In this document: positions 46,831 to 64,000 of the stretch, piece after piece
Position numbering within the stretch: position 1 is the stretch's first letter
Layout: every line of letters begins with the position of its first letter
Source of the DNA: Opitutales bacterium
GTDB lineage: Bacteria; Verrucomicrobiota; Verrucomicrobiia; Opitutales; JAFGAQ01
Direction of reading: 5' to 3'
Assembly: GCA_033813415.1 (NCBI GenBank)
Contig: JAPXRV010000002.1
Span: 23,432 to 87,431, forward strand
DNA length: 64,000 bases
Translations under genes and position numbers: made by a program
Notes under the pieces: generated by a model
Seen by the model: only the letters and a program-made list of their open reading frames with translations
Database searches by the model: none
Told to the model about the DNA's origin: nothing

Positions 46831-46907
46831 GGGCGAATTCTTGAGCAATGTCCCCGTGAGGCTGGAACAATGCCCACTCCCATGATTGCCTGATTCGGTC
46901 TGCGGCG

Positions 46908-49262
46908 TCAAGGAAAGGCCCACCAGGCAATGCCTTCGTAGCGAAGAACGGACTCCGGCACGTTGTTCTGAACATACTGCTTCTCAGCCTCGCTGATCGT
47001 GAAGAAGTGCGAGGCTGTGCGGCTCGCGTAGAAACGGTAGACAGGGAGTGCTCCTGACACAGGTCCCGCAAGCGCATGGAAGGCGATTCCTTCGAGCGAG
47101 AACACATCCGGCATGTCGCTGAGCACAGAGTCGCGCTCCGAAACGGTCATTGTGTAGAAGTGGCTTCCGGAAATCCGGTTGTAAAGGCGGTAGACTGGCA
47201 TCGCATGAGGGGTTGCGCCAGCGAGCACATGGTGGGATATCCCTTCGAGTGCGTAGGTTGCGGACATGGTTGCGATAACATTGGATTTCTCCGCTTCAGA
47301 TGCCGTGAAAAAGTGGCTGTTGTTGTCCGCCCGATGGAATCGGTAGAGTGGAACCCGGGAAGGATCTCCGGAGGGCTGAGGTGGCGTGGTCGGGCCTGAT
47401 GCAAAGGCCGCGAGCACGAAGGTGTAGCGCGACTGGTAGCCAGTTGAGTTTTCGGTGACCGACCATGAGTTCTCGGGCCATGAAGCATTCCAATCCTTGT
47501 AGGACTTCATCGGAGGCTGGTTTTGGGGCGGGGAGATGATCCCACGGTAGGAACTGTCGGGGGAGAAATACTGGTTGGGTCCCCCGGCGAGTATGCCCGG
47601 TGCCGGGTTGGTATCCCATTTTGTGCCATCATGGAACCATCCGTGGTAGATCTGGGTGATCGGTTTGTCTGCGCCGAACCGTTGGGCTTGAGTAATAAAG
47701 GTCCATCCCAAAGGGTTTCGCCCGTGGTAGTAGTGCAGGTATTCTTCAGCCAGCGCAAGGTAGGTGCCGGTCATGCCCGGGTTTGTCTGGAGTTTTGCCG
47801 CCCACAAAGCGATCATGGCCCATTGGGCTTTGAGTCCATTCGAGCTCCAAGTGTAGTGCCCATCCCACATAAAGCACTTGTATGGATCATTGTGGCGCTG
47901 CCCGTAGGTTTGGCGGCGAACCCCCTCGTCGAGTGACTGCCGGATGGCGGCGGTGATCGACGGGGTGGCGCCTGCGGACTGACAATACGTGATCATGGCC
48001 CGCTGTAAGTCAAAGGATCCGCCAGATTCGAAATAGGCGTTGATTATGGGATTATGGGAGCTGTCAGAGGTGGAAGGGTGCGCGTGGTATTGGTCAAACC
48101 AATCCCGGTACGCCGCATCGCCGGTCAGCCGGAAGAGCTCAGCCGCGGCGAGTACCCGGAGCCGCAACTCTGCGCCGGCGTTTTTGTTCGCATCGGCGTT
48201 GTCGAATCCGCTGTGGTCGTAGTGGATGGGTGATGGATGGTTTGCGAGAAATTGCCAGGCACGGATAGCCGCTTCGCGCAACCTTGCGGATGCTCCGGGC
48301 GAGGATGATTCAAATGGGGCGAGCAGCCGGGATGCTATGGCGAAGGATGCTGCGCCGGATGCGGTGGCGGAAGTGGAGATGTTGGCGTAGTAGTAGGGAC
48401 GATCCTCAGTGGATGGATCCCCGACTCCGTTTCCAAAGCCCTGGTCGCGTCTGATGACGAATACACCGGAGTAGAGCGCCCCGTCGGGACGCTGCATTTT
48501 GAGCATCCACTGGATTTCCCACATGATCTCATCGAGAATGTCGGGTGTGCCGTTGCCGCTCTCCGGGATTCCGGATTGATCCCCGAATACGGATGGCCAC
48601 CATTCGTAGGCGGTGCCCAGATCCCATATGATTTCGGCCATCCAGGATGTGTATTTGCGATAATCGCCGGCATCATACCAGCCTCCGGTGATGTCAAGGG
48701 CTGTGGATTCGGGCTGGATCCCGCCGAGGGAGTTGTCAAACATTCTCGATGCCAGCTGGTTCGCGATGTGAGCGGGTCCGTGGGTCCATTGTTCTCCGTA
48801 TTCGGGAGTTATCGCGGTTCCGCTTCGCTGATAGTAGTAGGATTTGGTGGAAGCCGTGAGGATGGAGTTGTAGGCATCTTCGCGGATGTCGAAATCGAAG
48901 GACTGGACATCGTTGGCGGGATCATAGATGTGATAGGTTCCCGGACTCCTGAGGTTGGAGAATTCGCCCTGCCACACCCTGTCCCCTGATGAAGAGTGGA
49001 CGGCACCATTACTCCATCTCTGGAGCGAAATGGACTGGATAACAGCGAGATCGCTGGTCCTTCGAATCTGCACTTCGCTTGCGGGTGGGCGGCCTTGGCC
49101 GGCGTTTTGCCCGGTCACCGGGACTGCGATCATGAACCATTTGTCCGATGCGGGACGGTATCCGAGTTGATCTACGACGATGAGCTCAGAGATCTGAGCT
49201 GCGTTCAATGAATAGGCCAATATCAGCACCAGCGCATGAAGGAGAGAAGTTTGGATTCGCAT
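46908..49262 (-). CDS. glycoside hydrolase family 9 (endoglucanase-like) with N-terminal Ig-like domain and C-terminal triple repeat
   Basis: 784 aa with a signal peptide. The GH9 signature DITGGWYDAGDYRKY is present, followed by the (alpha/alpha)6-type body (AGGPNQ). The C-terminal repeats are listed as a separate feature. Confidence 0.85.
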   Translation of the reverse strand: MRIQTSLLHALVLILAYSLNAAQISELIVVDQLGYRPASDKWFMIAVPVTGQNAGQGRPPASEVQIRRTSDLAVIQSISLQRWSNGAVHSSSGDRVWQGEFSNLRSPGTYHIYDPANDVQSFDFDIREDAYNSILTASTKSYYYQRSGTAITPEYGEQWTHGPAHIANQLASRMFDNSLGGIQPESTALDITGGWYDAGDYRKYTSWMAEIIWDLGTAYEWWPSVFGDQSGIPESGNGTPDILDEIMWEIQWMLKMQRPDGALYSGVFVIRRDQGFGNGVGDPSTEDRPYYYANISTSATASGAASFAIASRLLAPFESSSPGASARLREAAIRAWQFLANHPSPIHYDHSGFDNADANKNAGAELRLRVLAAAELFRLTGDAAYRDWFDQYHAHPSTSDSSHNPIINAYFESGGSFDLQRAMITYCQSAGATPSITAAIRQSLDEGVRRQTYGQRHNDPYKCFMWDGHYTWSSNGLKAQWAMIALWAAKLQTNPGMTGTYLALAEEYLHYYHGRNPLGWTFITQAQRFGADKPITQIYHGWFHDGTKWDTNPAPGILAGGPNQYFSPDSSYRGIISPPQNQPPMKSYKDWNASWPENSWSVTENSTGYQSRYTFVLAAFASGPTTPPQPSGDPSRVPLYRFHRADNNSHFFTASEAEKSNVIATMSATYALEGISHHVLAGATPHAMPVYRLYNRISGSHFYTMTVSERDSVLSDMPDVFSLEGIAFHALAGPVSGALPVYRFYASRTASHFFTISEAEKQYVQNNVPESVLRYEGIAWWAFP
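46911..47354 (-). repeat. three tandem ~48-aa protein repeats at the GH9 C-terminus
   Basis: The three units are VPLYRFHRADNNSHFFTASEAEKSNV...LEGI, MPVYRLYNRISGSHFYTMTVSERDSV...LEGI and LPVYRFYASRTASHFFTISEAEKQYV...YEGI. The shared pattern is P-[LV]-YR-[FL]-x6-SHF-[FY]-T-x3-SE. Confidence 0.8.
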
Positions 49263-49561
49263 TGTGGAAGAGGGGTTAGGATCTAGTCTATTCCGTAGTG
49301 CCAGGGTATCAATGCAAAAGCGGTGCTTGGGTTTGCGTGAACACCGGCTTTGGTATCAGGGATTGCTTCATACTGCCTAAGGTGGCAAGTAAGAACGGCT
49401 TATGACTGGATGATTGACAGCAGGGCGCTGGGATTCAGGATAAGGGTGAACGGATAACCGCTGCCCGTGGTCTCATCAACTGGATCATCGCGATTTGGAT
49501 TGATTCAGATGAGACTCTTTTTCTACCTCTGCTACCGTCATCAATTAGCCCCAATATAACC

Positions 49562-50602
49562 GTGTCTCTACTCGAAAACCTCCAGAACCAGCTTAGACGC
49601 CATCCCAAGCGGATTGTCTTTCCTGAAGGGGCGGACCCCCGGATCATTCAGGCCGCACGTCAGTTTGTAACGCATCAGCTCGGAATTCCTGTTTTGTTGG
49701 GCGATCGGAGTGTGATTAAGGAACGGGCGATGCAGTTGAATATCAATCTCGACCACATCCGCCTGATTGAGCCTGAACGGACGGATGAACTTGAGTTGTA
49801 TGTCGAACGGTTGTCGGCGATTTCGCATTTCTCGGATTTATCGCGGGCCCAGCTTCGGGATATCGCCTTGGACAAGAACGCTTACGCTGCTCTCATGGTC
49901 GCCAACGGGCAGGCCGATGGCCTGGTATCGGGTGCGACCACCACGGCTTCGAGCGCTTTGCGGCCGATGCTTCGGATCATACCGCGTCAGGATCATGTGA
50001 GCACCGTGTCATCTCTCCTGATATTGGATATTCCAATGGAGGAAAATGAGCGGCGGGTTTTGGCACTTGCCGATTCGGCGGTCATTCCGGATCCGAGTGC
50101 CGATCAGCTCAGTGACATTGCGATCACCACAGCGTTGCTGCGCTACCACCTGACCAATGAAGTGTCCAAGGTGGCGATGTTGAGCTACACCACACATTCG
50201 GAGCATGTGCATCACCCGGCTGTAAGGAAAATGCGGGAAGCAACTGCGAAGGTTAAAAACAGGATCCGCGAGCTGGATTTGCCGATTCTGGTGGAAGGTG
50301 AAATTCAGGCTGATGCGGCTCTCGATCCCTTCTCTGCCCGGATTAAACAATTGAGTGGAGATGTGGCTGGGGACGCGAATGTGTTGATCTTTCCCGATCT
50401 CGTGTCCAGCAACATCGCCTCCAAGATGGTGCAGTTTTTGTCGACCTGCAGGTCATACGGTCAGATCCTGACCGGATTCAATCGGCCGGCGGCAGAAATC
50501 AGCCGCAGTGCAAGTGCCCATGATATTCTCGGCACAGCGGTTATCGTCGCGGCGCAGGCAGTGGACCGCCGGCTCCTTTTTGGATTGAGCGGGCAGGGAT
50601 AA
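49562..50602 (+). CDS. pta: phosphate acetyltransferase, catalytic (PTA_PTB) domain only
   Basis: 346 aa with a GTG start. The typical N-terminus KRIVFPEGADPRIIQAA and the rest of the PTA_PTB-like body are present. No N-terminal regulatory domains are fused. Confidence 0.85.
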   Translation: MSLLENLQNQLRRHPKRIVFPEGADPRIIQAARQFVTHQLGIPVLLGDRSVIKERAMQLNINLDHIRLIEPERTDELELYVERLSAISHFSDLSRAQLRDIALDKNAYAALMVANGQADGLVSGATTTASSALRPMLRIIPRQDHVSTVSSLLILDIPMEENERRVLALADSAVIPDPSADQLSDIAITTALLRYHLTNEVSKVAMLSYTTHSEHVHHPAVRKMREATAKVKNRIRELDLPILVEGEIQADAALDPFSARIKQLSGDVAGDANVLIFPDLVSSNIASKMVQFLSTCRSYGQILTGFNRPAAEISRSASAHDILGTAVIVAAQAVDRRLLFGLSGQG

Positions 50603-50621
50603 TCGGACATTTCCGGTTTTC

Positions 50622-51791
50622 ATGGCAAACGCAGCTTCTTCCAATGCTCCATCGGGCGAATTGCTCAAGGGACCGCTCAATAGCACAACGAAACGCATTT
50701 TTGTTGCCGGAACCCGTATGAATGAAGGCAAGACAACGACTTGCCTCGGGCTGTTTTCCGCTCTTCAGTCGGTTCATCCAAAGGTGGGTTACATCAAGCC
50801 TGTCGGGCAGCGTTTTGTGGAAATCGGGGGCTCAATGATTGATGAGGACTCGGTATTGTTTGACCGGACCTATGAGATCTCGACGCCGATTGAAGCGATG
50901 AGTCCGGTCGCGATTGATCCGACTTTGACCCGGCGGTACCTGGATGACCCCGACTCGTATTCGCCTGCTTTGGTGGATCGGATCAGTCGGGGTTTTGACC
51001 GGGCCGCCTATGAGAAAGACTACATCATCATCGAAGGGAGCGGGCATGCCGGCGTGGGTTCGGTGATTGATATGTCCAACGCCTCGGTTGCCAAACTACT
51101 CGGGGCCAAGGTGATTATCGTGTCCTCAGGCGGGATCGGCCGGCCCGTGGACGAGATTGCGACCAACCGTGCCTTATTCCGGGAGCATGGCGTCGAGGTG
51201 ATCGGAGCGATCCTCAACAAGGTGTTTCCGGAGAAGCTCGAGTTCATCCGGGAGTATGGGCGTAAGGGATTGGCGCGCCTGGGTATCGATCTCTTGGGGG
51301 TGATTCCAGTGGTGAAGGAGCTTACCGCCCCGAATCTTACTCAGATTGTCGATGAGATCGGAGGGCGTTGGCTGAACGGAGAGGCGACTGGGCGGAATAC
51401 CCGTGTGCTTCGGGTCGTTATCGGCGCAATGACGGCAAGGGTGGCTTTGGAGTATTTCAAGCCAGGGGTTCTGGTGATTGTTCCGGGCGACCGCGAGGAC
51501 ATATTGTTCGCGGCTATGGCGTCGGAGCGGATGCTCGAGAACGCGGGCAGCGTGGCTGGTATTATTCTGACAAGGAATGTGCTTCCAAGTCCCCGTATGA
51601 TGGACTTGATCCGGCAGACTTCTTTGCCGGTGGTGATTTCGGAGGATGAGAGTTATGGAGTGGCTTCGAAGATCAATGGAATGACCATCAAGACTCAGCC
51701 GGAAGATTGTGACAAGATCCCGCTGATTCAGAAGACCATCATGGAGAATATTGACCTGGAGCGCATCCTGCAGGCTTTTGATGCTGAGTGA
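50622..51791 (+). CDS. BioD-like P-loop + DRTGG domain protein (equivalent to the N-terminal half of long-form Pta)
   Basis: 389 aa. The P-loop-like start is IFVAGTRMNEGKTTTCLGL...GYIKPVGQ. A DRTGG-like segment follows (VLVIVPGDREDILFAAM). It starts 19 nt after the pta stop. Confidence 0.7.
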   Translation: MANAASSNAPSGELLKGPLNSTTKRIFVAGTRMNEGKTTTCLGLFSALQSVHPKVGYIKPVGQRFVEIGGSMIDEDSVLFDRTYEISTPIEAMSPVAIDPTLTRRYLDDPDSYSPALVDRISRGFDRAAYEKDYIIIEGSGHAGVGSVIDMSNASVAKLLGAKVIIVSSGGIGRPVDEIATNRALFREHGVEVIGAILNKVFPEKLEFIREYGRKGLARLGIDLLGVIPVVKELTAPNLTQIVDEIGGRWLNGEATGRNTRVLRVVIGAMTARVALEYFKPGVLVIVPGDREDILFAAMASERMLENAGSVAGIILTRNVLPSPRMMDLIRQTSLPVVISEDESYGVASKINGMTIKTQPEDCDKIPLIQKTIMENIDLERILQAFDAE

Positions 51792-51906
51792 GTGTGGCTG
51801 GCGGAGGGCCTCGGGTGTTTGGTTTTGTGGGGATACCTGCTGAACTGAACCAGCTTTCGTTGATCCCGGGAATCCATGGGAGTTCTGTCATTACGCGTTC
51901 CTGCTG

Positions 51907-53796
51907 TCACTTCCGCATTAACGTCTGGATTCGGGCGATTTGGCAGCTTCTCGCTAGTCGAAGCAGTAGGTTGAGTCCGGAATCATTTGGGTATCCGGAT
52001 GCAACGCTGGACAAGTATTCTGCCAGTGTGGCGACGTCTCCCTCTTCGGCGTAAGCGCGGATATTGGCTTGAATGTGATCCGGCAGCGAGTGGACATTTG
52101 TGTGGAGTGTGCTGGAGTTGTCTGTTTCGAACGCATCTGCGGGACTCCGATCCGCCACACAGGGAGTGGCACAGGGCCCCATGTTTGTAAGGATGAAGTC
52201 TGTAGGTGGCGCGTGTAGGATTTCGCCACAGGATCCGGAATCTGATGCAGCGCTTTGGCTTATGAGCTTTCCCGATTCGATGCGCGACGTGTCGAGGATG
52301 TTGTTGATCAGCTTTAGAAGGTGGTCACCGCACTGGTGGATGACTTCGATCTGTTTGGTCACTTCCGGCTGGATGGTTTGGTTTCGGCGAAGGATCTGGG
52401 TGAAACCAAGAATTCCGTTGAGCGGCGTGCGGAGTTCGTGGCTGACTGATGCCAGAAAAATGGATTTTGCGCGGTTGGCCGACTCGGCTTTGTCCTTTTG
52501 AATGAGCAGGGCTTCCGATGTGACCCGAAGCGAATGGGTTCGCTCGTCCACCAGTCTTTCAAGCTTATCCCGGTGGGTTTTAAGTTCTTCGGATTGCGCC
52601 TCGAGGAGATGGGTTTTTTTGGCGAGGTCACGCCGGTTCTCAACGGATTGAATGGTCTGTTTGTATCCTATCAGCATGAGGAATGACATCATCCCAAGAT
52701 AGAAGGAGCTGGTTGTGATCCGGGATAGTCCCAATAGAGTCAGGATCACAAAGCTGAGGTCCAGACAGGCAGTAGCTACCAGAATTGAAAACGCCCAGCG
52801 GATGTAGGCTTGGTCGGGTCTTTGTCTTTCCCGAAGGAATCTCCAGAGCGAGGGCGAAACCAATCCAAGCGTGACTGGCATCATTCCCCAAAAGATGCAG
52901 ACCAGTACCGATGATATCAGTTGAGGGCTGGCCAAAAGGACGGCGGCAATCCAGACGTGAAGGATAGCAAGCTTGTGAACCCGGTTGGGTCTCCTCATTC
53001 CAAGCAGATTTTCGATGTATAGGAGAAACGCCACAGGAAGCAGAAACATGGAGCCATTGGTGAGATACCAGATGAGCCATGGATTCGGATTCCGGATGCT
53101 GAGAACTTCCGAATCGAGCATGTTGAGTCCGGTGAGCAGCGATAGGGTTCCAATGTGGATGAATGTGCGCCGGTTTTCCTCATCATGGACCGCTACCACA
53201 ATCAGGCAGTATACTCCCGAGAGGATCATGAGCATGCGGATGATTGCGATCGGCAGTTCCTGTTTTAACGCCTGAATGCTCCATTGGTTAACGGATCCGA
53301 AATGTGGAAACTCGGTGAAACCGCTTGATTCATACGGCTTGGAGGTGAACTCGATCAGGATCTGTTTGCCGGGTGCCCCATCCGGGAGCGGGATTGAGTG
53401 GGAGCTGGAGGATAGATACTGACGTGCAAACCAGGATTTGTCTTCGCCGTAGCTGTAGATGAGACCGTCCTCTACGAAGACACTGAACGGTCCGTGGGCA
53501 GAGTTTGTGAGGAGGACAATCCCTGCATCGTGAGGTAGTGTTTCGGGTAAGGTATTGCGGAAACAGAGGCGGCCTTCGTGACTGGAGAATCGAAGTTTGG
53601 GTTGCTTGGTTTCGATCCAGATGGACCCGGAATGTTGATCATCCAGTTGGAACGCCCAAGGGGTTCCTAATGGACGCAGGCCATATGGTCCCTCGCCGTT
53701 TTTCGCTTCATTCCAGAATCTTCCCCGGACACCTGTCACAACACATAGCAACAGCACAATGCTGATGATGGTCCATATGTGTTTCTTGGGATGCAT
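51907..53796 (-). CDS. 7TM-receptor (7TMR-DISM-like) HisKA protein lacking a recognisable HATPase_c domain
   Basis: I prefer the ATG at 53796 (MHPKKHIWTIISIVLLLCVV). It has an extracytoplasmic region, seven hydrophobic helices, a coiled coil and the H-box FLASVSHELRTPLNGILGF. It ends ~120 aa after the HisKA domain with no N/G1/F/G2 boxes. Confidence 0.7.
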   Translation of the reverse strand: MHPKKHIWTIISIVLLLCVVTGVRGRFWNEAKNGEGPYGLRPLGTPWAFQLDDQHSGSIWIETKQPKLRFSSHEGRLCFRNTLPETLPHDAGIVLLTNSAHGPFSVFVEDGLIYSYGEDKSWFARQYLSSSSHSIPLPDGAPGKQILIEFTSKPYESSGFTEFPHFGSVNQWSIQALKQELPIAIIRMLMILSGVYCLIVVAVHDEENRRTFIHIGTLSLLTGLNMLDSEVLSIRNPNPWLIWYLTNGSMFLLPVAFLLYIENLLGMRRPNRVHKLAILHVWIAAVLLASPQLISSVLVCIFWGMMPVTLGLVSPSLWRFLRERQRPDQAYIRWAFSILVATACLDLSFVILTLLGLSRITTSSFYLGMMSFLMLIGYKQTIQSVENRRDLAKKTHLLEAQSEELKTHRDKLERLVDERTHSLRVTSEALLIQKDKAESANRAKSIFLASVSHELRTPLNGILGFTQILRRNQTIQPEVTKQIEVIHQCGDHLLKLINNILDTSRIESGKLISQSAASDSGSCGEILHAPPTDFILTNMGPCATPCVADRSPADAFETDNSSTLHTNVHSLPDHIQANIRAYAEEGDVATLAEYLSSVASGYPNDSGLNLLLRLARSCQIARIQTLMRK

Positions 53797-54125
53797 GAAC
53801 GGCCCGTTTTTGAATGGGTATGAATCCGTGGTGTGGCATATCCCGTGCCATAGTGGTGGAAAATGTGTCCAATATGAACAAAACGCAGTGTGCATCGGGA
53901 TTGATGTCTGGACAGACAATCCCGATGCACCACAGGGGCGGCACGAGGGATCGTGGGCAATCGATCCTATATCGCTCCATTGGAACGAGAAGTCGTGGGC
54001 GTACGCCCACAAACCAACGGCTTCGTGCGGGCCGTGTGGTTTGCCTTATACCCTATGGGCGATCAACTGTTGGGTGGCGTTTCGACGGATACCTATCGGG
54101 CATGTCCTGTATAAAACTGCGCCAA

Positions 54126-55310
54126 TCAGGCGCCCGTGGATTTCCGCGTTTCCAGGAAATGCTCAATGCGGTTGCAGGCTTCGATCAAGGTTTCGTAGGC
54201 CGTTGAAAAACTTACCCTTACGAATCCTTCGCCAGCCGGTCCAAAGGCGTTTCCAGGAACGAGCGCCACGTTCTCGCTGTCCAGCAGTGATGTGGCAAAT
54301 GCTTTTGAATCCAGACCGGTGCTCTTGATGCACGGGAATACGTAGAAACTTCCTCCCGGAGAATGGCACTTGAGCCCCATTCCATTGAAGCGTTCCACCA
54401 GAAAATCGCGCCGGCGATGATACTGGGCTTTCATTCTGGCCACGCTGTCATCTCCATTCCGGAGTGCCTCAATGGCGGCTTCCTGGCTCAGGATGGGAGC
54501 GCACAGCATGCTGTATTGGTGGACCTTCATCATGGCCTCGATCAGCTCGCGTGGACCGCAGGCATAGCCGATGCGGAATCCGGTCATGGCAAATGCCTTC
54601 GAGAATCCGTGCAGGAGCAGGGTGCGATCCCGCATGCCCGGCAGGCTGGCAATGCTCACATGTGGCCGATCGAACGATAGCTCACTGTAAATCTCATCGC
54701 TGATGACCAGCAGGTCTTTTTCGATAGCGAAATCGGCGATCTTCTGGAGGGTTTCCATGTCGGCGGTGCCACCGGTCGGGTTGGTCGGGAAGTTCAGCAC
54801 CAGAACCTTGCAACCCGGAGTCCATGCCTGCCTGAGTTTCTCAGGATTGAGCATGAACGCATCGTCGGGAGATGTCGATACTCCGACCCCTTCCCCGTGC
54901 ACCAGACTGATGCTCGGATGGTAGGAGACGTAGCAGGGTTCATGATAGATGACTTTCTCGCCGGGGTTGACCACTGACCTCAGCGCGAGATCCAGCGCCT
55001 CCGATACTCCAACCGTTACCAATACCTCGTTTTGCGGGGCGTAGGATACGTGGAAGAAGCGCTCAACATAGGCGCATATCTCCCGGCGCAGCCGGATGAG
55101 GCCGAGGTTGTCGGTGTAACTCGTGCGCCCGCGTTCAAGGGCGAACCAGGCGGCCTCGCGGATATGCCATGGGGTGACGAAATCGGGTTCCCCTATGGCC
55201 AGCGATATGGCGTCCGGACGCTGGGCGACCAGCCCGAAGAAATCGCGGATTCCGGAACGCGGAAGAACTTTGACGTGATGAGCAACAAACTCAGATGGGT
55301 TGCGTGGCAT
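54126..55310 (-). CDS. PLP-dependent aminotransferase, class I/II (aspartate/aromatic-type)
   Basis: The PLP-lysine motif is in LHGFSKAFAMTGFRIGY, and NPTNPTG-like FPTNPTGG is present. I prefer the ATG at 55310; the track start is 55352. Confidence 0.85.
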   Translation of the reverse strand: MPRNPSEFVAHHVKVLPRSGIRDFFGLVAQRPDAISLAIGEPDFVTPWHIREAAWFALERGRTSYTDNLGLIRLRREICAYVERFFHVSYAPQNEVLVTVGVSEALDLALRSVVNPGEKVIYHEPCYVSYHPSISLVHGEGVGVSTSPDDAFMLNPEKLRQAWTPGCKVLVLNFPTNPTGGTADMETLQKIADFAIEKDLLVISDEIYSELSFDRPHVSIASLPGMRDRTLLLHGFSKAFAMTGFRIGYACGPRELIEAMMKVHQYSMLCAPILSQEAAIEALRNGDDSVARMKAQYHRRRDFLVERFNGMGLKCHSPGGSFYVFPCIKSTGLDSKAFATSLLDSENVALVPGNAFGPAGEGFVRVSFSTAYETLIEACNRIEHFLETRKSTGA

Positions 55311-55425
55311 GGATCTGAAAAAGGTGAGAAGAATGGTTTGGGTAGAACCCACGGTCTGCCAACTCCTGCGTTGTCCTCATCGGACAGACAATGCATTTGA
55401 AGGATGCCGTGAGGACCGCTTGCTT

Positions 55426-55908
55426 TTAAGCGCTGACGGTCGGCTTGTCCGGATCGTGACTGGTTTTGACCAGTTCAAATCCTTGTTCCTTGTAGGCCCT
55501 CAGGAGGAAGTGGGTGGCAGTGGAAAGGACGCCATCCATGGTTGAGAGGCGCTCCGATATAAAGCGTGCGACCTGATGGAGCGAGTGTCCCGACACGATC
55601 GCCATGAGATCGTATCCACCCGACATGAGGTAGCAGCTCTCCACTTCCTGAAAACGGGCAATCCGCAGTGCCAGACGGTCAAACCCCCCGTCTCTTTCGG
55701 GGCGGATGCGGATTTCGATCACAGCCCGCACCACTTCTGAATCGATCTTGGTCGGATCGATCACCGGCCTCCAACCAAGGAAGATACCCTTTTCCTTCAA
55801 CGCCGCCAGACCCGCTTCAATTTCCGCTTCGGTGCGATGCAGAATTTCCGCGATTTGGCCAATGGAGAGAGGCTCTCCATCCAGGATCAGTTTGAGTATC
55901 TCGTTCAT
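55426..55908 (-). CDS. Lrp/AsnC family transcriptional regulator
   Basis: An N-terminal HTH (MNEILKLILDGEPLSIGQIAEILHRTEAEIEAGL) is followed by a RAM/AsnC-type ligand domain (CYLMSGGYDLMAIV). I prefer the ATG at 55908 over the track start at 55965. Confidence 0.8.
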   Translation of the reverse strand: MNEILKLILDGEPLSIGQIAEILHRTEAEIEAGLAALKEKGIFLGWRPVIDPTKIDSEVVRAVIEIRIRPERDGGFDRLALRIARFQEVESCYLMSGGYDLMAIVSGHSLHQVARFISERLSTMDGVLSTATHFLLRAYKEQGFELVKTSHDPDKPTVSA

Positions 55909-56192
55909 TGAAAAACAAAGCATGCGAGGGTGTTTTGACCGTGTCAAGGGGACAGTTGACGCCATCGGAGTCCGTCGAATGTCGTCGAATACTGTCGGAG
56001 TCCATCGGGTGCTATCGGGCGATGATTTGTGCTCGCATTCTTGAGACGTCTATCTAGATTAGGCTAAGTTTAACCTACCGAACGGGCATCTGGGAAACGG
56101 GATGGATGCATTCCTCTTTCCATCAGATGGCGACCAATCAAAGTGTTGAGATCAGAAGAGTAGTTGTTCGCAAAATGACTGGATGATTCAAG

Positions 56193-57800
56193 ATGACAGA
56201 GACAACGGGAGCAAATCTGGGTTTTGAGGACAAGCTGTGGAACGCGGCGGACAAGATGCGGGGCACGATGGATGCGGCCGAGTATAAACATGTCGTCCTT
56301 GGACTGATCTTCCTAAAATACATCTCGGATGCTTTTCAGGAGCGCTACGACCAGTTGAAGGCAGAGGCTTTTGCCGACCCCGAAGATCGCGACGAATACA
56401 TGGCCCTCAATGTCTTCTGGGTTCCGCCTGAGGCCCGTTGGCTCTATCTCCAGAGCCGCGCTAAAGACCCGAAGATTGGCCAGCTCCTGGACGAGGGAAT
56501 GACCGCCATCGAGCGTGACAACCCTCCGCTAAAGGGTGTGCTTCCCAAAGACTACGCCCGGCCTTCTCTCGACAAAGCGCGGCTTGGGCAACTCATCGAT
56601 TTAATCGCTACGATTGGCTTGGGAGACGAGCAGAGCCGTCAGCGTGACGTCCTCGGGCGCGTTTACGAGTACTTTCTTGCCAGGTTTGCCGAAAAGGAAG
56701 GCAAACTTGGCGGTGAGTTCTATACTCCGCAGTGCGTGGTCCAGCTGCTCGTGGAGATGCTGGAGCCCTACAAGGGCCGCGTCTTTGACCCCTGCTGTGG
56801 CTCGGGTGGCATGTTTGTGCAAGCGGTGCGCTTCGTGAAGGCCCACGCCACCGGCAATGGCAACGGCGCAGCCGCCCTGAGGCAGATTTCCATCTATGGG
56901 CAAGAGTCGAACTATACAACTTGGCGGCTGGCCATCATGAATCTGGCCATTCGGGGCATTGATGCTGATATCCGTTGGGGCGACTCTTTCCTTCAGAATA
57001 AGCATCCCGACCTTCGGGCCGACTACATCATCGCCAACCCGCCTTTCAATATGGAGGATTGGGGTTTTTCCAAGGTGAAGGATGACGTGCGCTGGGCTTA
57101 CGGCACTCCTCCCGGAGGCGGGCAACGGAAGCAGAAGGATGGCTCCGTTGTTTCGGTGGACGGCGGCAACGCCAACTACGCCTGGATTCAGCATTTCATT
57201 CACCATCTGGCTTCAGACGGCCTTGCGGGCTTTGTTCTTGCCAACGGCTCCATGTCCACCCAGACGGGCGGAGAGGGAGAGATCCGCAAAGCCCTGATCG
57301 AAGCTGACATGGTGGACTGCATGATCGCGCTGCCCGGCCAGCTCTTCTACACCACGCAGATTCCCGTCTGCCTGTGGTTCCTCACGCGATCGAAGCGTCC
57401 GGACAACAAGCGGGGCTTCCGGGGGCGCGTTGGAGAGACCCTTTTTATCGATGCCCGCAAGCTTGGCACCCTTATAGATCGCACTCACCGTGAGCTGTCT
57501 GCTGCTGAAATCGTGGAAGTCGCCCGTACCTACCATGCCTGGCGCGGCGAAGCTAAGGATGGTGCTTACGAGGATAAGCCCGGCTTCTGCCAGTCGGCGA
57601 CCCTCGAGGATATCCGCAAGCACCATCATGTGCTGACACCTGGCCGGTATGTGGGCTCCGAAGCGATCGAAGACGATGGCATTCCCTTTGAGGAAAAGAT
57701 GGCCGAACTCGCCGACCGCCTGCAGCAGCAGATGCGGGAATCCATCGAACTCGATGCCACCATCCGCAAGAATCTGGAGGTTTTGGGCTATGGAGAGTGA
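56193..57800 (+). CDS. hsdM: Type I restriction-modification system, DNA methyltransferase subunit
   Basis: 535 aa with an HsdM_N-like N-terminus. Motifs: [17 protein letters not shown] motif [11 protein letters not shown], and catalytic IANPPFNM (NPPF at 57036-57047). Confidence 0.9.
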
Positions 57801-59079
57801 GTGGACAAAGAGCACTTGGGGTGACGAGGTTTCCTTGGAATACGGCAAGGGCATTCGCGGGTATCAAACTGCCAAGGGTCGGTATCGCGTGTTTGGCGCT
57901 AACGGTCCAGTCGGTTGGACAAGCAAACCACTTGTGCAGGGTTCAGGGGTGATTTTAGGTAGGAAGGGAGCATATCGAGGGGTTGAGTATTCGAAGGAAC
58001 CGTTCTTCGTCATCGATACAGCGTATTACGTGCAGCCCAAGAAGCCTCTCGATATGAGGTGGCTTTATTACGCCATAAAGTACTATAGGCTTGGGGAAAT
58101 AGACGATGGCTCGCCAATTCCATCTACGACAAGGGCTGCTGTCTATGTTCGCGATTTGAGCGTTCCCCCGCTTCCCGAGCAGAAGGCTATTGCGCACGTG
58201 CTCGGGTCGTTGGATGACAAGATAGAAGCGAACCGGCAGATGAACTCCACGCTGGAGGCGATGGCGCAGGCGCTCTTCAAGAGCTGGTTCGTGGACTTCG
58301 ACCCCGTGATCGACAACGCCCTCGCCGCAGGCAACCCCATTCCCGACGAACTCCAGGCCCGCGCCGCAGCCCGTGAATCCCTCGGCGACGCCCGCAAACC
58401 CCTCCCCGAACACCTCCAGAACCTCTTCCCCGCCTCCTTCACCCAAACCGAAGAACTCGGCTGGATTCCGGAGGGGTGGGCGGTAGGCCGCATTCGTGAC
58501 TGTTGTGAAAAGATTCAGAATGGCGGAACCCCAAAACGAAACATCAAGGATTATTGGCAGCCGCTCCAAGTGCCCTGGTTGACTTCCGGCGAGGTAAGAC
58601 GCGGTTTCATTACCAGAACTGAAACTTTCATTTCTGAGCTTGGACTGCAAAAAAGTGCGGCAAAATGGGTTCCTGAAGATGCGACCGTAGTCGCCCTTTA
58701 CGGAGCGACTGCCGGTCAGGTTGCTTTCTGCGCCTCAAGGCTTACTACTAACCAAGCAGTATGTGCCTTGATCAGCAAAGAGAACTATCGCTTCTTTAGT
58801 TACATTTTTCTGTCTCGATCTATTGGTTCCTTAGCCAATCAGGCAAGAGGTTCAGCTCAGCAGAACATAAGTAAGGGCATTGTTGAGGAACTCCCAGTGA
58901 TCCTCCCAAATACATCTGTCGTTCAAACCTTTGACAAACTACTTGAACCAGTCTTCGCCAAGTGGAAGCTGAACGAATCGTATAGCTCCGACCTCGCCAA
59001 GACCCGTGACACACTGCTGCCCAAACTCCTCTCCGGCGAACTCCGCCTGCCAATCGAAGAATTGGAGGTGGCGGTATGA
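57790..59079 (+). CDS. hsdS: Type I restriction-modification system, specificity subunit
   Basis: The ATG at 57790 ([14 protein letters not shown]) overlaps the hsdM stop by 11 nt. Two variable TRD-like halves are separated by conserved helices: [46 protein letters not shown] and the C-terminal [16 protein letters not shown]. Confidence 0.85.
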
Positions 59080-61001
59080 GCAGGGAAACGACGCTGTCCA
59101 GCTTGGCCATGCTGAAGGTGCGTGTGGACCAAGGGGGCGATTATCTGGAGTATCTCAGGCCTTTCATCCTCCATGTCCTGCCGAAGCTTCAGAATGGCGT
59201 CGTCACGGATGAAAGCGTCTCATTGGCCCTGCTCAACGAGTTCGGGCTCTCGATACCTCGCAGAACAACCCAGATCGTTCTCAAGCGGCTAACGAAGAAG
59301 GCCGGGCCTCTCCGCAAGGACAACAACACTTACGTCCTGGAAAAAGACATCTCGTCGGGCGATCTTGCCACTCGCCGGGCTGACGCATCCCGGCGCATCT
59401 CAGCAGTCGCCCATGCTCTGATTCGATTTGCAAAGGAGTTCCACGACAAAGACCTATCGGAAGACAGCGCTTTTGAGGCCCTGACTCTCTTCCTTTCAAG
59501 GTTTTCCGTCAGCTGCATTCGCTCCTACCTTCGCGGAACAGCTCTGCCCAACAATCTCACCGCGAAGGATGGAGATCTTCTGTTGGTCTGCCAATTTGTG
59601 AAACAGATCCAGTCGATATGTCCCGAACGTTTCGAGGATTTCATCCTTCTCGTTCAAGGGCACATGCTCGCCAATGCTCTGCTCTGTCCTGACCTCAAGT
59701 CTGTTTCCAAGACCTATGCAGGTGTTTCGTTTTTCCTCGATACGCCTCTGCTACTTCAGGTTTTGGGGCTTGAAGGCGAAACGAAGGAACAATCTGTAAA
59801 GGAGTTGATTCGATTGCTTCAAAGCCTAAGTGGAACGGTTGGATATTTCATTCACACTTTCGATGAGTTGAGGAGTGTCATCCGGAAAACCTCAGATTAC
59901 ATCGACTCTACAGATGGACGCGGATCAATCGTTTACGAAGCCAGACGTTTAGGCAAATCCAGGTCAGACCTACTACTGGAGGCAGATAATGCCAAGGAAA
60001 GTCTGGATAGGCTGAAGCTCGTACCACATAACACCCCGCCTTACATTGCGAAATTCCAAATCGATGAAAGCGCGTTCGGGGATGAATTAGATGATTCAGT
60101 TTCGTACAACAATCCGAATGCTCGCCAGAATGATATAAACTCTGTGCGCAGTATCTACGTGCTTAGGCAAGGGACGATTCCACATTCCATCGAGTCTTCG
60201 AAGGCCATCTTTGTCACCAGCAACACCGGTTTCGCGAGAGCAGCTTTTGAATACGGAAGAAACTTCGAACAAACGCGGGAGGTCTCCGCTGTAATCTCTG
60301 ATTTCAGCTTGGCAAATACCGCTTGGCTAAAGGCTCCTCAGGGCGCACCGTCTCTTCCGAGAAAGGAGGTTCTGGCTTATTCATACGCAGCTCTTCGCCC
60401 CAGCGAGGAGTTTCTCAGGAAGACGCTTGTCGAAGCCGAAAAGCTCGAAAGGGAAGGCAAGATCTCTGAGCGATCCCACCAGATGCTCCGAAGCAATCAC
60501 ATCATCCAAGAAGATCTGCTGTCTCATACTCTTGGAGAGGAAGATGCGCTCACGGAGCGGTCAATCACTGCAGTTTTAGAAAAAGCTGAGGCGGAGATAA
60601 AAAAGGAGGAGTCGGCGAAACTCCGACAAGAGAAGGCGGCTCGCACACGAGCTGAAACAGATCTGCAGGAAGAAAGAACAAAAAGAGAGGAAATATCTCG
60701 TCGAATCTATTGGGATTGCGATACGCAAGCAAAGAGGTGGTCAGATATTGGGGCCGGAACATTGGTCTTTTTCGTCTTGGCGGGTGCCGTTTGCGGATTA
60801 CTCAAGCTTCCTGATAACCTGTTGGCGGGAGTGGTTATTCTTTCTGTCCCTCTGGTCTTTGCTGTTCTGACCGTTTGTAACCTCATCTGGGGAACCACAG
60901 TAAAGCAGTTGAGGGACAATGCCCAAGTGAATCTTAGGCAAAGATTTCTTAAGAGGGAGTCGCAGAGGCTGGGAATTGAATTTGAGAATCTTGCAGAATA
61001 A
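59076..61001 (+). CDS. unknown 641-aa protein: winged-helix-like N-terminus, PIN-like central region, coiled coil, C-terminal two-TM hairpin (defence-locus cargo)
   Basis: ATGA overlap with the hsdS stop (59076-59079). wHTH-like stretch: GLSIPRRTTQIVLKRLTKKAGPLRKDNNTYVL. PIN-like landmarks: FFLDTPLLLQVLG, HTFDELRSVI, QNDINSV, IFVTSNTGF. Hydrophobic helices at aa 558-578 and 582-606 (nt 60747-60893). I do not recognise the family. Confidence 0.7.
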   Translation: MSRETTLSSLAMLKVRVDQGGDYLEYLRPFILHVLPKLQNGVVTDESVSLALLNEFGLSIPRRTTQIVLKRLTKKAGPLRKDNNTYVLEKDISSGDLATRRADASRRISAVAHALIRFAKEFHDKDLSEDSAFEALTLFLSRFSVSCIRSYLRGTALPNNLTAKDGDLLLVCQFVKQIQSICPERFEDFILLVQGHMLANALLCPDLKSVSKTYAGVSFFLDTPLLLQVLGLEGETKEQSVKELIRLLQSLSGTVGYFIHTFDELRSVIRKTSDYIDSTDGRGSIVYEARRLGKSRSDLLLEADNAKESLDRLKLVPHNTPPYIAKFQIDESAFGDELDDSVSYNNPNARQNDINSVRSIYVLRQGTIPHSIESSKAIFVTSNTGFARAAFEYGRNFEQTREVSAVISDFSLANTAWLKAPQGAPSLPRKEVLAYSYAALRPSEEFLRKTLVEAEKLEREGKISERSHQMLRSNHIIQEDLLSHTLGEEDALTERSITAVLEKAEAEIKKEESAKLRQEKAARTRAETDLQEERTKREEISRRIYWDCDTQAKRWSDIGAGTLVFFVLAGAVCGLLKLPDNLLAGVVILSVPLVFAVLTVCNLIWGTTVKQLRDNAQVNLRQRFLKRESQRLGIEFENLAE

Positions 61002-61798
61002 TGAACCTCTCCTGCACTAAAACTGAGTATGAGGACAACCACGCCTGCGTGTCGTGGCGTGGTCACTCGTTCTCGGTAGGCAGTGAGTTCGACGGATTTC
61101 TGAAGGGAAGCGTTCGCTCGCGACTGGACGATGAGGAGGGTTCGGACGATTTCCGCAGCCATGTGAGAGGATTGGAACTGACTGGGATGGGGAAGACCAC
61201 ACTGGAGGCGGTGCTGGCAGCCGAAGCCCCCGAGGAACGGGATTGGGCCGCTGGCGAGGCTTTGGCCGAAGCATTCTTGATGGAGACCCATGGGATCGCC
61301 TTCCCCTGGAACATGGAGCGCGATAAGCGCAATCCGTTTGGATCCCTGCCGGGTGCTGATCTAGTAGGCTTCCTCTCCGAAGGCGATGGCTACCGGCTGG
61401 CGCTTGGCGAGGTCAAAACATCCTCCGAGGAAGCCTATCCGCCGCAGGTCATGTCGGGCAGGTCGGGACACATGGGTCATCAGATTGACACGCTCGGGAG
61501 TGACTTGACGACCCTATGCCAGCTTCTCAAATGGTTGCACCCGCGCACTAAAGGTGGGCAGTTTGAGGATGCGTTTGACAGGTCCTGTGTTGCATACTTC
61601 AATTCGGGCCGAAAGGCGATAGCGCTTTTTGGCGTGCTCATCCGTGACACGCAACCGAACGCTCGGGACCTCTCCGCCAGGGGATCAGCCTTGCGGAATC
61701 GGCTCGCTGCGCCGACGCAGTGCGACCTCATCGCCCTTTACCTTCCCTGGAAATCGGACCAACTAATCCCCGCGATCCGGCAAGGAGGTGACGCATGA
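61001..61798 (+). CDS. PD-(D/E)xK-type nuclease-like protein, HamA/DUF1837-like candidate
   Basis: 265 aa. The start shares base 61001 with the upstream stop (TAATG). The core reads PGAD120LVGFLSEGDGYRLALGE137VK139TSS, a D...ExK arrangement. It is ATGA-coupled to the downstream helicase. Confidence 0.6.
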   Translation: MNLSCTKTEYEDNHACVSWRGHSFSVGSEFDGFLKGSVRSRLDDEEGSDDFRSHVRGLELTGMGKTTLEAVLAAEAPEERDWAAGEALAEAFLMETHGIAFPWNMERDKRNPFGSLPGADLVGFLSEGDGYRLALGEVKTSSEEAYPPQVMSGRSGHMGHQIDTLGSDLTTLCQLLKWLHPRTKGGQFEDAFDRSCVAYFNSGRKAIALFGVLIRDTQPNARDLSARGSALRNRLAAPTQCDLIALYLPWKSDQLIPAIRQGGDA

Positions 61799-64000
61799 GC
61801 CACTGGTTGCTGGATGGAATCGCGGAGCGCCGCCGCGCGGCCTTGAAGGCTGCGGACAAGGCGCAGGTTTACCGTGAGCTGCTGTCTACCGAGGCGGAGA
61901 CAGACTATGATCTGATCCGGAATGTCGCCGACGCGTTGGAGCTGGCCTCGCTCGACCTCATCTTGGAACGCTTTGAAGAGGACGAGGAGAAAGAGAAGCT
62001 TTTCCGCGCCGCTGCGCGTGATGCTTTCCGCCTTTCCAAGAGTCTGCCAGCGGCGGATATCCCCCTCCAAGAAGGCATGGCGCTGCTGCGGGCATCCTGT
62101 CTGGCAGTGCTCGGGGATCGGGGCTCTGATGCCGCTCGTTGGCTTCGCGCCTTGGAAGACTCCGGGACCTGGCCAGAACTGCCCTTTGAATCGGAAAACT
62201 GGGGCGAGCGAACCTGGGCGACCATCATCGACGTGTGGCTTCGTTTGATTCGGAAACGGGGTTGGACTGACCGTGACCTGGTGCTGCAACGCATCGCGAG
62301 TTTGCGCGAAAGCCAGAGTGAATTCGAGAAGACCTACCTGGACGGCATCCCGGCCCAATCCGCAAAAGCGACGGCCCTTGAACTTATCGGGCTCTACCAT
62401 TTGGCCAAAGCGGCGGATATTCTTGCGCACTTCATCACGGATGGAGTCGTGGAAGGGAACCATCAGGTGCAGCAGCTCCTCGACACCCATTTCGACCGGG
62501 CATTGGCGGCTTGCGAACCAGCCCGCTTGATTGAGCTGGAGCCCATGACGCGTCTATTGGCGGCTGCCTCGGCGCAACTGGTCAACAATTCGATCTGGAC
62601 GGTGACCCGGGCGGTGAACTCACGAGTGACTCAGTTTGTGCGGACGCTCGTATCTCGTGGACGTGGGGACAAAGCGATCTTCGATGTTCTACCGCCGCAA
62701 CGCCGAACTCTCGCTGAAAAGGGACTCTTGGGCTCAAGCCGCCGTGCAGTGGTGGTCAGTTTGCCAACATCTAGCGGCAAGACGCTGATTGCGCAGTTCC
62801 GCATTTTGCAGGCACTGAATCAGTTTGATGACCCGGGCAGTGAAGGCTGGGTCGCTTACCTCGCTCCCACCCGGGCATTGGTCAATCAGGTGACGAGGCA
62901 ATTGCGCAGGGACTTTAAGCCATTGGGCATCGTGGTCGAGCGGGTGAGCCCCGCACTCGAAGTTGATGGCGTGGAAATGGAATTGCTGACAGAAACAGAA
63001 ACGGACTCCAAGTTTCGCGTTCTGGTGACCACTCCGGAGAAACTCGATCTCATGCTCCGGCAAGGATGGGAGAGCAAGATTGGCAGGCCGCTGACGCTGG
63101 TTATTGTCGACGAAGCCCATAATTTGGCCAGTTCGCGCCGAGGCCTGAAACTCGAACTACTCCTCGCCAACATCAACAAGGAGTGCGAATACGCGCAGTT
63201 TCTCCTGCTCACGCCTTTTGTTTCCAATGCGCGTGAAGTAGCCAGATGGCTTGGCGGACAGAATTCTGACGACATTAGCCTCGCCCTCGATTGGCAGCCC
63301 AATGACCGTACAATCGGAATCGTGCAAGCAGTTCAGGGTGACCCGCTGAATGGGCGCAGCTATGACTATTCTTTGGAGTTCGAAAGTGTCCACACGACCC
63401 GGAAGACCATTGCCCTCGATGATCGGGTTCCTTTCCCGAAGACCGAGGAAATAGCACCGACTTTTTCCAAGGCAAAGAATCAAGGCACAATAGCAGCGGT
63501 CGCGGCACAGTATCTGAAACAGCGTGGCCCCGTCATTCTCATGCACGCGAGGCCGGATTGGGTTTGGTCCTTGGCAGACCAGCTCAAGATCGTCTCGAAT
63601 CGGAAAATTGCTGTTCACGCAGACATTGCTTTTGTGCAGCGATATCTGGCGCTCGAATTGGGAGAAGCATTTCCCCTCATCGAGTTATTGTCGTTTGGCA
63701 TCGGAATCCATCATTCGGGATTGCCCGAGGAGGTTAGGGTTTTGGTCGAGTGGTTATTCGAGTCCTCGCACCTCGACTTTCTGGTTGCTACGACGACCAT
63801 CGCTCAAGGTATCAATTTTCCCGTCAGTGGTGTAGTGATGGCATCCCACCAGTATTTCAGCGCGAGGGGCGCAGAAGACATGCCACCGGAAGACTTCTGG
63901 AATATCGCGGGTAGAGCAGGGAGAATATCTCAGGGCCAACTCGGAATAGTCGCTTTGGCCGCCGACAGTCACGAAAAGGCCAGTGCTTTGCGGACCTACA
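61795..64000 (+). CDS. Ski2/Hel308-like DExH-box SF2 helicase with ~320-aa N-terminal extension (partial, runs off window end); HamB-like candidate
   Basis: Own translation: ATG at 61795, open for 735 codons to 64000. It is not in the track because no stop is reached. Motifs: PTSSGKT (62764-62784), TTPEK, VIVDEAH (DEAH 63109-63120), LLLTPF, IGIHHSGL, VATTTIAQGINFP, NIAGRAGR (63907-63924). Confidence 0.85.
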   Translation, partial: MSHWLLDGIAERRRAALKAADKAQVYRELLSTEAETDYDLIRNVADALELASLDLILERFEEDEEKEKLFRAAARDAFRLSKSLPAADIPLQEGMALLRASCLAVLGDRGSDAARWLRALEDSGTWPELPFESENWGERTWATIIDVWLRLIRKRGWTDRDLVLQRIASLRESQSEFEKTYLDGIPAQSAKATALELIGLYHLAKAADILAHFITDGVVEGNHQVQQLLDTHFDRALAACEPARLIELEPMTRLLAAASAQLVNNSIWTVTRAVNSRVTQFVRTLVSRGRGDKAIFDVLPPQRRTLAEKGLLGSSRRAVVVSLPTSSGKTLIAQFRILQALNQFDDPGSEGWVAYLAPTRALVNQVTRQLRRDFKPLGIVVERVSPALEVDGVEMELLTETETDSKFRVLVTTPEKLDLMLRQGWESKIGRPLTLVIVDEAHNLASSRRGLKLELLLANINKECEYAQFLLLTPFVSNAREVARWLGGQNSDDISLALDWQPNDRTIGIVQAVQGDPLNGRSYDYSLEFESVHTTRKTIALDDRVPFPKTEEIAPTFSKAKNQGTIAAVAAQYLKQRGPVILMHARPDWVWSLADQLKIVSNRKIAVHADIAFVQRYLALELGEAFPLIELLSFGIGIHHSGLPEEVRVLVEWLFESSHLDFLVATTTIAQGINFPVSGVVMASHQYFSARGAEDMPPEDFWNIAGRAGRISQGQLGIVALAADSHEKASALRTY

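Follow-up and report, generated by a model that had tools for sequence, protein, structure and literature searches.

Does the Type I restriction-modification (R-M) operon of an Opitutales bacterium lack its hsdR gene and carry, in the place of hsdR, a new defence system of three genes? The question is raised by a stretch of 64,000 nt of contig JAPXRV010000002.1 (positions 23,432-87,431; hereafter the window), of which the region 56193-64000 was examined. This region holds hsdM, hsdS, a gene for a protein of 641 amino acids (aa; orf641), orf265, and the gene of a Ski2-like helicase that is still open where the window ends. A sequence-only reading had taken the last three genes as one functional unit, either a new three-gene system or an R-M-wired variant of Hachiman with an extra component. 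According to our analysis, the apparent methylase without hsdR and its novel trio are to be corrected to a complete R-M operon with two stacked passengers. We put the probability at about 85% that the region is a single operon for a complete Type I R-M system, into which two cargo modules, independent of each other and separately mobile, have been inserted between hsdS and hsdR. Of these, the first is orf641 and the second is the pair of orf265 and the helicase, which match PDC-M23A and PDC-M23B of PADLOC (hereafter M23A and M23B).

Organisation of the hsd operon

An identical-protein look-up with orf641 returned four independent assemblies and allowed the contig to be extended past base 64000. 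One of them, L001, is an independent assembly of the window's locus with 4 mismatches over an overlap of 6,557 nt. In L001 both the full helicase (1061 aa) and, joined to it by a TAATG overlap, an HsdR of 1059 aa were recovered. This HsdR (L001 7537-10716) has the domains HSDR_N, SWI2_SNF2, ResIII, T1R_D3 and T1RH-like_C and matches PADLOC REase_I with 1098.8 bits, and its gene starts 980 nt beyond base 64000, at the equivalent of window position 64980. It had been stated that the window ends without an HsdR-like gene, which is correct, because it stops short of hsdR by this distance; however, the cargo does not stand where hsdR would be expected, since hsdR lies directly off the window. A missing hsdR is thus rejected as a window-edge artefact. 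The Type I R-M system is complete, and both restriction and methylation activity are predicted for it.

The two genes at the head of the operon are canonical Type I subunits, as the earlier reading had it. HsdM matches Pfam N6_Mtase (6.8e-98) and HsdM_N (2.9e-27) as well as PADLOC MTase_I (2.3e-210), and HsdS matches Pfam Methylase_S in two stretches and PADLOC Specificity_I (6.4e-100) over residues 1-423. The start of hsdS was placed at 57790 and not at the upstream in-frame ATG at 57649, because the PADLOC specificity-subunit model aligns from residue 1; independent gene calls in four other assemblies also back this start.

The full unit is hsdM-hsdS-orf641-M23A-M23B-hsdR, and all five of its junctions overlap, with a tight coupling of the genes in translation. 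The positions of the five genes inside the window and their overlapping stops and starts were all confirmed (Table 1): hsdM and hsdS overlap by 11 nt at 57790-57800 (GGCTATGGAGAGTGA), hsdS and orf641 share ATGA at 59076-59079, orf641 and orf265 meet in TAATG at 60999-61003 with base 61001 common to stop and start, and orf265 and the helicase share ATGA at 61795-61798. In addition, a Shine-Dalgarno sequence (GGAGG or AGGAGG) lies 7-9 nt 5' of the hsdS, orf641 and helicase starts, that is, of all internal starts in the window but that of orf265. Scans of the operon for promoter-like and terminator-like sites gave no more than is expected from shuffled sequence. The six genes would be transcribed from the hsdM promoter, so that the defence layers would be co-expressed, and HsdMSR would restrict unmethylated DNA. 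Meanwhile, residues 914-1048 of the L001 HsdR give a weak match (4.8e-08) to the PADLOC single-gene candidate PDC-S15, a candidate that may derive from the HsdR C-terminal domain.

Linkage between orf641 and the nuclease/helicase pair

Whether the three cargo genes belong together was judged by two reciprocal surveys. A pattern scan anchored on orf641, with one genome per species, gave 80 loci from many phyla, and the contents of these loci were determined by tblastn with the six operon proteins within ±10 kb (thresholds: E≤1e-3 for M23A, at least 150 bits for an M23B-like helicase). The survey anchored on M23A comprised 80 metagenome loci, of which 70 had enough upstream DNA and 74 enough downstream DNA.

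At the orf641 loci, neither an M23A relative (0/80) nor an M23B-like helicase (0/80) was found. Any hsd gene on the same strand was present at 34 of the 80 loci, hsdS stood directly 5' of orf641 at 25, and hsdR followed 3' of it at 23 (directly at 13, behind further cargo at 10). When 1,397 neighbouring open reading frames (ORFs) were clustered all against all, the only recurrent neighbours of orf641 were hsdS (30 loci), hsdM (26) and hsdR (24), every other family being found at six loci or fewer. In the opposite direction, M23B was adjacent to M23A at 73 of 74 loci and hsd genes lay on the same strand at 34 of 80 loci; orf641 adjoined M23A at one of 70, the sibling contig L085, whose orf641 is 100% identical to that of the window. 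One short contig, L086, likewise has orf641 directly 5' of M23A, with 72% identity for the orf641 C-terminus and 88% for M23A. Both L085 and L086 stem from the lineage of the window or from one closely related to it.

The closest relatives of the two parts show them apart. The closest hsd relative, L087, has the order hsdM(82%)-hsdS-M23A(78%)-M23B(86%)-hsdR(71%), so that there the pair fills this position of the hsd operon and orf641 is absent. In L165, which has the nearest relative of orf641 on a long contig (71% identity), the order is HTH-hsdM-hsdS-orf641-Dcm methylase-HATPase/HEF_HK-Response_reg_2-hsdR, with unrelated cargo beside orf641. Composition also marks a seam, with GC and third-codon-position GC of 0.50/0.55 in orf641, 0.58/0.69 in hsdM and 0.59/0.68 in M23A, while the GC of the neighbouring genes is 0.58-0.59. 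Since conserved linkage was found in neither survey, the three-gene reading, whether as a new system or as an R-M-wired Hachiman variant with an extra component, fails on the point chosen beforehand to decide it and is rejected. Judged by these comparisons, orf641 and the M23A-M23B pair are independent cargo modules, and their standing side by side is specific to the lineage.

The cargo in L165 (11925-17690) consists of a C5 DNA methylase, a 1001-aa HATPase_c_3/HEF_HK/HATPase_c protein and a 557-aa Response_reg_2 protein, and an HTH_3 gene precedes its hsdM.

Table 1. Coordinates of the operon genes, the hsdS 3' junction and the predicted parts of orf641 (window positions)
Feature	Position	Strand	Basis
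hsdM, Type I R-M methyltransferase, 535 aa	56193..57800	+	Pfam, PADLOC
hsdS, specificity subunit, 429 aa	57790..59079	+	Pfam, PADLOC
hsdS 3' junction GGAGGTGGCGGTATGA (last 20 nt of hsdS)	59060..59079	+	near-identical in L087, L165
orf641, cargo module 1, 641 aa	59076..61001	+	ORF; solitary uncharacterised family
orf641 residues 1-95, predicted winged helix-turn-helix	59076..59360	+	AF2, Foldseek
orf641 residues about 214-425, PIN-like alpha/beta domain	59715..60350	+	Foldseek local, conserved residues
orf641 residues about 555-606, C-terminal transmembrane hairpin	60738..60893	+	hydropathy
orf265 = PDC-M23A, cargo module 2, 265 aa, candidate PD-(D/E)xK-type nuclease	61001..61798	+	PADLOC
PDC-M23B, Ski2-like superfamily 2 helicase, cargo module 2, 735/1061 aa inside window	61795..64000 (open at end)	+	PADLOC, Pfam

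Conserved segments of hsdS

The hsdS gene comprises two variable target-recognition domains, a conserved centre (about 58165-58480) and a conserved 3' end (58989-59079). The last nucleotides of the gene follow the consensus GGAGGTGGCG(G/A)TATGA, which is kept between distant relatives (window 59060-59079, L087 9985-10004, L165 about 9985-10004). This end, GGAGGTGGCGGTATGA in the window, contains a Shine-Dalgarno sequence as well as an ATG that overlaps the stop of hsdS and serves as the start of whichever cargo gene follows: orf641 in the window and in L165, M23A in L087. Other genomes gave 24 hsdS-orf641 junctions; in 16 of them the genes overlap by 1-11 nt, and in most of the remainder they are separated by no more than 22 nt.

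DNA homology between relatives resumes at window position 58989, within the conserved hsdS C-terminus. The sibling contig L085 (1-1432, compared with window 57790-59079) shows 98.8% DNA identity from 58989 on, through orf641 and downstream. Its hsdS has different target-recognition domains and matches that of the window only in the centre at 58165-58480 (85%) and in the conserved C-terminal region, which points to specificity shuffling inside the population. Cargo exchange and specificity shuffling thus appear to use the same conserved hsdS segments. A shared start point at the hsdS 3' end, with its Shine-Dalgarno sequence and ATGA, would illustrate in concrete terms how hsd operons exchange their cargo and co-express it.

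The PDC-M23 pair and its relation to Hachiman

Both proteins of the second module match known PADLOC models from end to end: M23A matches PDC-M23A with 6.2e-97 (residues 1-260 against model positions 1-259 of 263), and the full-length M23B of L001 matches PDC-M23B with 1384.6 bits (residues 2-1059 against model positions 4-1060 of 1060). The pair is a member of the PADLOC candidate PDC-M23, with a predicted anti-phage function. PDC-M23 corresponds to cassette CAS_00096 (FAM_02460>>FAM_00699), for which 161 instances are given (Payne et al. 2024 supplement, 10.1101/2024.01.29.577857). The pair in the window agrees with it over both proteins, in the A-then-B order, in the common strand and in being embedded in R-M genes, and no material difference was seen. 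The PDC-S and PDC-M entries of PADLOC are curated from genes that lie inside BREX, DISARM and Type I R-M systems, 145 untested candidates having been released, and this guilt-by-embedding approach yielded seven validated systems (Payne et al. 2024, 10.1101/2024.01.29.577857). In the literature searched, no mention of PDC-M23 by name was found.

The putative catalytic residues of M23A are D120 (61358-61360) and E137-V-K139 (61409-61417), and D120, E137 and K139 are invariant in 30 homologues. M23B, of which 735 codons lie open to 64000 within the window, has Pfam DEAD and Helicase_C matches, with Walker A GKT at 62776, DEAH at 63109 and motif VI GRAGR at 63910.

The earlier reading regarded the pair as Hachiman-like, and this holds for the D120/E137/K139 motif and for the Ski2-like helicase with its HamB relatives; the pair is not, however, an unrecognised one, given its full-length PADLOC matches. 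It is possible, at somewhat below even odds, that M23A and M23B are a bona fide divergent Hachiman system, into which PDC-M23 should be merged. The helicase argues for this: the best PADLOC relatives of M23B outside PDC-M23 are HamB models (HamB1 2.3e-67), and among PDB entries it matches HamB 8vx9_B (2e-24), with further matches to Brr2, Hel308 and Ski2. HamB binds HamA through an N-terminal helical bundle; in M23B, about 290 residues lie ahead of the helicase core, and the alignment with the HamB model PDLC00192 starts at residue 175. As in Hachiman, a small D...ExK nuclease gene stands directly 5' of a large Ski2-like helicase gene with an N-terminal extension and a core homologous to HamB. 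HamA has the catalytic motif D-E(X)K, to which E138 and K140 belong, and is closest in fold to type IIS endonucleases (PMC12278908); D120/E137-x-K139 of M23A, a protein of similar size, mirrors this motif, and its faint Foldseek matches include the type IIS endonucleases FokI and Nt.BspD6I, the class of the closest structural relatives of HamA. Two M23A homologues are also named "HamA C-terminal domain-containing" in UniRef.

In contrast to the helicase, M23A shows no detectable homology to DUF1837, the Hachiman-defining domain of HamA (PMC13064477), by profile or by Foldseek. Pfam HamA (PF08878) was matched by one of 30 M23A family members, at E 0.23, and M23A itself has no Pfam hit; no PADLOC HamA model matched M23A at E≤0.01, a PDB sequence profile search did not find HamA, and chain A of 8vx9 is not among the best 50 Foldseek PDB matches. 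The identification of M23A as HamA is therefore not supported, and PADLOC keeps PDC-M23 as a separate family. We class the pair as PDC-M23 and as Hachiman-like rather than as a demonstrated Hachiman system. If M23AB works like HamAB, the helicase would load on DNA ends or damage and license the nuclease.

A second recurrent nesting of PDC-M23 was seen at twelve of the surveyed loci (L109, L113, L114, L116-L118, L121, L129, L130, L133, L143 and L160), where the pair lies between a distant hsdR upstream and hsdM downstream. These belong to a different Type I family with another gene order, and their hsd proteins have 25-29% identity to those of the window.

The orf641 family and its architecture

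An exhaustive profile search placed 4,271 cluster representatives (50% identity) in the orf641 family at E≤1e-3, and 1,909 at ≤1e-30. Among the best 150, most are about 600-700 aa long and aligned across nearly the whole profile. orf641 has no match in Pfam, NCBIfam, PADLOC or PHROGs, and nothing significant came from Pfam scans of 36 members (E≤5), from PADLOC scans that included distant plasmid homologues, or from a PDB profile search; the family is also not among the 145 PADLOC candidates. Homologues are labelled "hypothetical protein" by their sources, with one Joint Genome Institute (JGI) record reading "predicted transcriptional regulator". The family is thus large and constant in architecture but without an entry in these four collections, and its function is a predicted one.

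The earlier description of orf641 as a membrane protein with winged helix-turn-helix and PIN-like parts agrees with a transmembrane hairpin seen in the hydropathy and with local fold matches. The structure was modelled with AlphaFold2 (AF2; predicted local distance difference test, pLDDT, of 75) and compared by Foldseek. In the model, a winged helix, a helical region, an alpha/beta domain, helices including one of ~80 residues (494-573) and two terminal helices follow each other. Residues 1-95 form a helix bundle and then a beta hairpin, for which Foldseek gave local matches to GntR-type regulators and I73R (prob 0.98, TM-score 0.75 normalised by target length); a weak profile match to the Rok winged helix (E 0.56) was also obtained. 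The region 214-425 has local matches to VapC 7vwo (prob 0.96), PAE2754 (0.94) and HARP (0.69), all at E>0.1. In all 36 aligned family members, the hydropathy peaks of the C-terminal hairpin fall in the same, conserved place.

A deep alignment was made with plasmid homologues at 22-33% identity (Klebsiella, E. faecium and Sporosarcina) and the most divergent genomic copies. The conserved residues are D222, E264, D353, R364, T381-x-N383, D409 and W417-L-K-x-P421, all of which are invariant down to homologues at 22-30% identity except D409, conserved in about 90%. This pattern fits a PIN-like acidic site with Asn383 at the position of the usual third Asp. Like the PIN nucleases VapC, PAE2754 and HARP, to which it shows local fold similarity over about 214-425, orf641 has an Asp where beta-1 ends, followed some 42 residues on by a Glu, and further conserved acidic residues. 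It differs from them in having no significant match to any Pfam PIN family, in Asn383, and in that the domain sits in a membrane-anchored protein of 640 aa.

Genomic context and possible role of orf641

The neighbours of solitary orf641 copies include housekeeping genes (ribonucleotide reductase, PutA, tRNA synthetases) as well as methylases, UvrD-like helicases, DUF1156 and Schlafen/AlbA. Neither the clustering of the 1,397 ORFs nor Pfam and PADLOC scans of 106 neighbours revealed a conserved partner of these copies. The plasmid homologues are solitary and lie among insertion sequence (IS) elements and resolvases, one of them beside an operon of a type II cyclic oligonucleotide-based anti-phage signalling system (CBASS). 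In hsd operons that bear orf641, the co-cargo is the usual embedded set: RhuM, DUF1016/YhcG, GmrSD, AlbA/Schlafen, an IrrE-like peptidase and DUF3644. No phage-borne homologues were found, and the literature yielded nothing relevant on single-gene defence by a winged helix-turn-helix/PIN/transmembrane protein. Of the 80 loci, six are RefSeq isolate records, each of them solitary, one with a short hsdR-like fragment nearby, and the clearly embedded copies are all in metagenome-assembled genomes (MAGs). A RefSeq-based embedding screen may well have left out the family for this reason, probably because the isolate copies are solitary.

Two observations on single loci may be added. On the Sporosarcina plasmid pSporoP37 (L170 10178-14793), an orf641 homologue of 27% identity lies ~1.2 kb 5' of the type II CBASS-like operon, which encodes a nucleotidyltransferase, a ThiF-family protein, an MPN protein and a SAVED protein, and a resolvase gene stands between the two. 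In five MAGs, most of them long-read (L053, L062, L068, L082 and L083), orf641 is frameshift-split or interrupted, with a Mutator or IS-like gene in L062 and L068; the split copies are either assembly errors or real gene decay.

We infer that orf641 most likely acts as an autonomous membrane-tethered nuclease-type defence or abortive-infection effector that is often co-expressed with Type I R-M. The protein would be a nuclease effector of abortive-infection or entry-site type, and behind hsdS it would gain co-regulation with the R-M system and would possibly guard it. By guilt-by-embedding logic, orf641 can reasonably be called an untested defence candidate.

A role outside immunity is unlikely, though it deserves the most weight among the other views of orf641. 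The protein might be a membrane-anchored DNA-binding regulator, or a maintenance or exclusion factor of mobile elements that hitch-hikes in variable regions, and its N-terminal winged helix-turn-helix, the JGI label, the solitary copies beside housekeeping genes, the plasmid copies among IS elements and resolvases, and the Asn at the canonical third PIN Asp are all consistent with this. However, hsd genes are its sole recurrent neighbours, its co-cargo is typical defence cargo, catalysis is suggested by the deep conservation of the acidic residues clustered on a PIN-like fold, and the search for phage-borne homologues was negative.

Considerably less probable is a role as an R-M fail-safe of the PrrC kind, in which orf641 would be held latent through HsdMS(R) and would trigger nuclease- or membrane-based abortive infection upon anti-restriction. 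Such a guard role is attractive because of the position of orf641: it sits between hsdS and hsdR, 25 of the 80 copies follow hsdS directly, and 16 of the 24 hsdS-orf641 junctions overlap the hsdS stop. In addition, PIN-type domains, such as that of VapC, are typically RNases. The many solitary copies weaken it, since more than half of the orf641 copies are without hsd genes within 10 kb and the plasmid homologues are solitary. The anticodon nuclease PrrC of EcoprrI is nested in a Type Ic R-M locus (PMC1484252), and orf641 resembles it as a single nuclease-type gene between hsdS and hsdR of an hsd operon; in sequence and domains, however, the two are not akin, as orf641 combines winged helix-turn-helix, PIN-like and transmembrane parts and has no homology to the ABC ATPase or anticodon-nuclease domains of PrrC. 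Moreover, prrC is reported to be always linked to R-M (PMC3458546), whereas orf641 has same-strand hsd genes within 10 kb in 34 of 80 loci and is solitary in most genomes.

It is just as doubtful that the orf641 family as a whole is a new and widespread single-gene immune effector, a membrane-anchored PIN-like nuclease with a winged-helix sensor that plugs into the hsdS 3' junction as a PrrC-like fail-safe, fires when Type I restriction is neutralised, and was missed by the catalogues since its embedded copies are almost only found in uncultivated organisms.

The view that orf641, nuclease and helicase are one system, be it a Hachiman variant with a membrane component or a trio replacing HsdR, has hardly any chance: in the window the trio forms an unbroken, translationally coupled row, L085 and L086 share the orf641-M23A TAATG junction, and three-gene hamC-hamA-hamB variants of Hachiman are known (PMC13064477), but the surveys, the relatives that hold one part without the other, the presence of hsdR and the deviating GC of orf641 all stand against it.

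Comparison with other embedded-cargo operons

We return to the reading of one complete R-M operon with two independent modules. The claim that foreign defence cargo is nested in hsd operons is well founded (Payne et al. 2024, 10.1101/2024.01.29.577857), a further case being TgvAB of the V. cholerae VPI-2 (PMC11411939). The operon in the window resembles these in that the cargo has the same orientation, lies between hsdS and hsdR with the R-M system intact, is independently mobile and varies among relatives. It differs from them in stacking two unrelated cargoes with every junction overlapped, and orf641 lies outside the 145 PADLOC candidates. The operon is thus of a known kind, with one catalogued cargo and one that belongs to a large uncharacterised family. 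Two leads come from it, the orf641 family and the shared hsdS junction, and neither overturns current understanding.

Several points weigh against the reading as a whole or against parts of it. We infer the single transcript from the gene overlaps and from promoter and terminator matches that do not exceed chance. Two lineages, those of the window and of L086, keep orf641 directly 5' of M23A, so a local functional interaction is possible. A defence context of orf641 is not universal, about 46 of the 80 copies being solitary and some of them next to housekeeping genes, and the defence function of both orf641 and PDC-M23 is a predicted one. The PIN-like assignment draws on local Foldseek matches that have a high probability but E>0.1 and were obtained with a model whose pLDDT is 75; in Pfam, 2 of 36 family members reach PIN_12, at E 0.67, and the canonical third PIN Asp is replaced by Asn.

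Flanking genes

On the 5' side of hsdM, an AsnC/Lrp regulator gene and an aminotransferase gene lie on the opposite strand, and in L001 the gene next after hsdR encodes a TonB-dependent receptor. Neither in window 45000-64000 nor in L001 was a tRNA gene found beside the operon. Further upstream, at 51907-54012 on the minus strand, a 701-aa 7TMR-DISM/HisKA sensor kinase ORF has no HATPase_c match at E≤1e-4 and may encode a truncated or atypical kinase.

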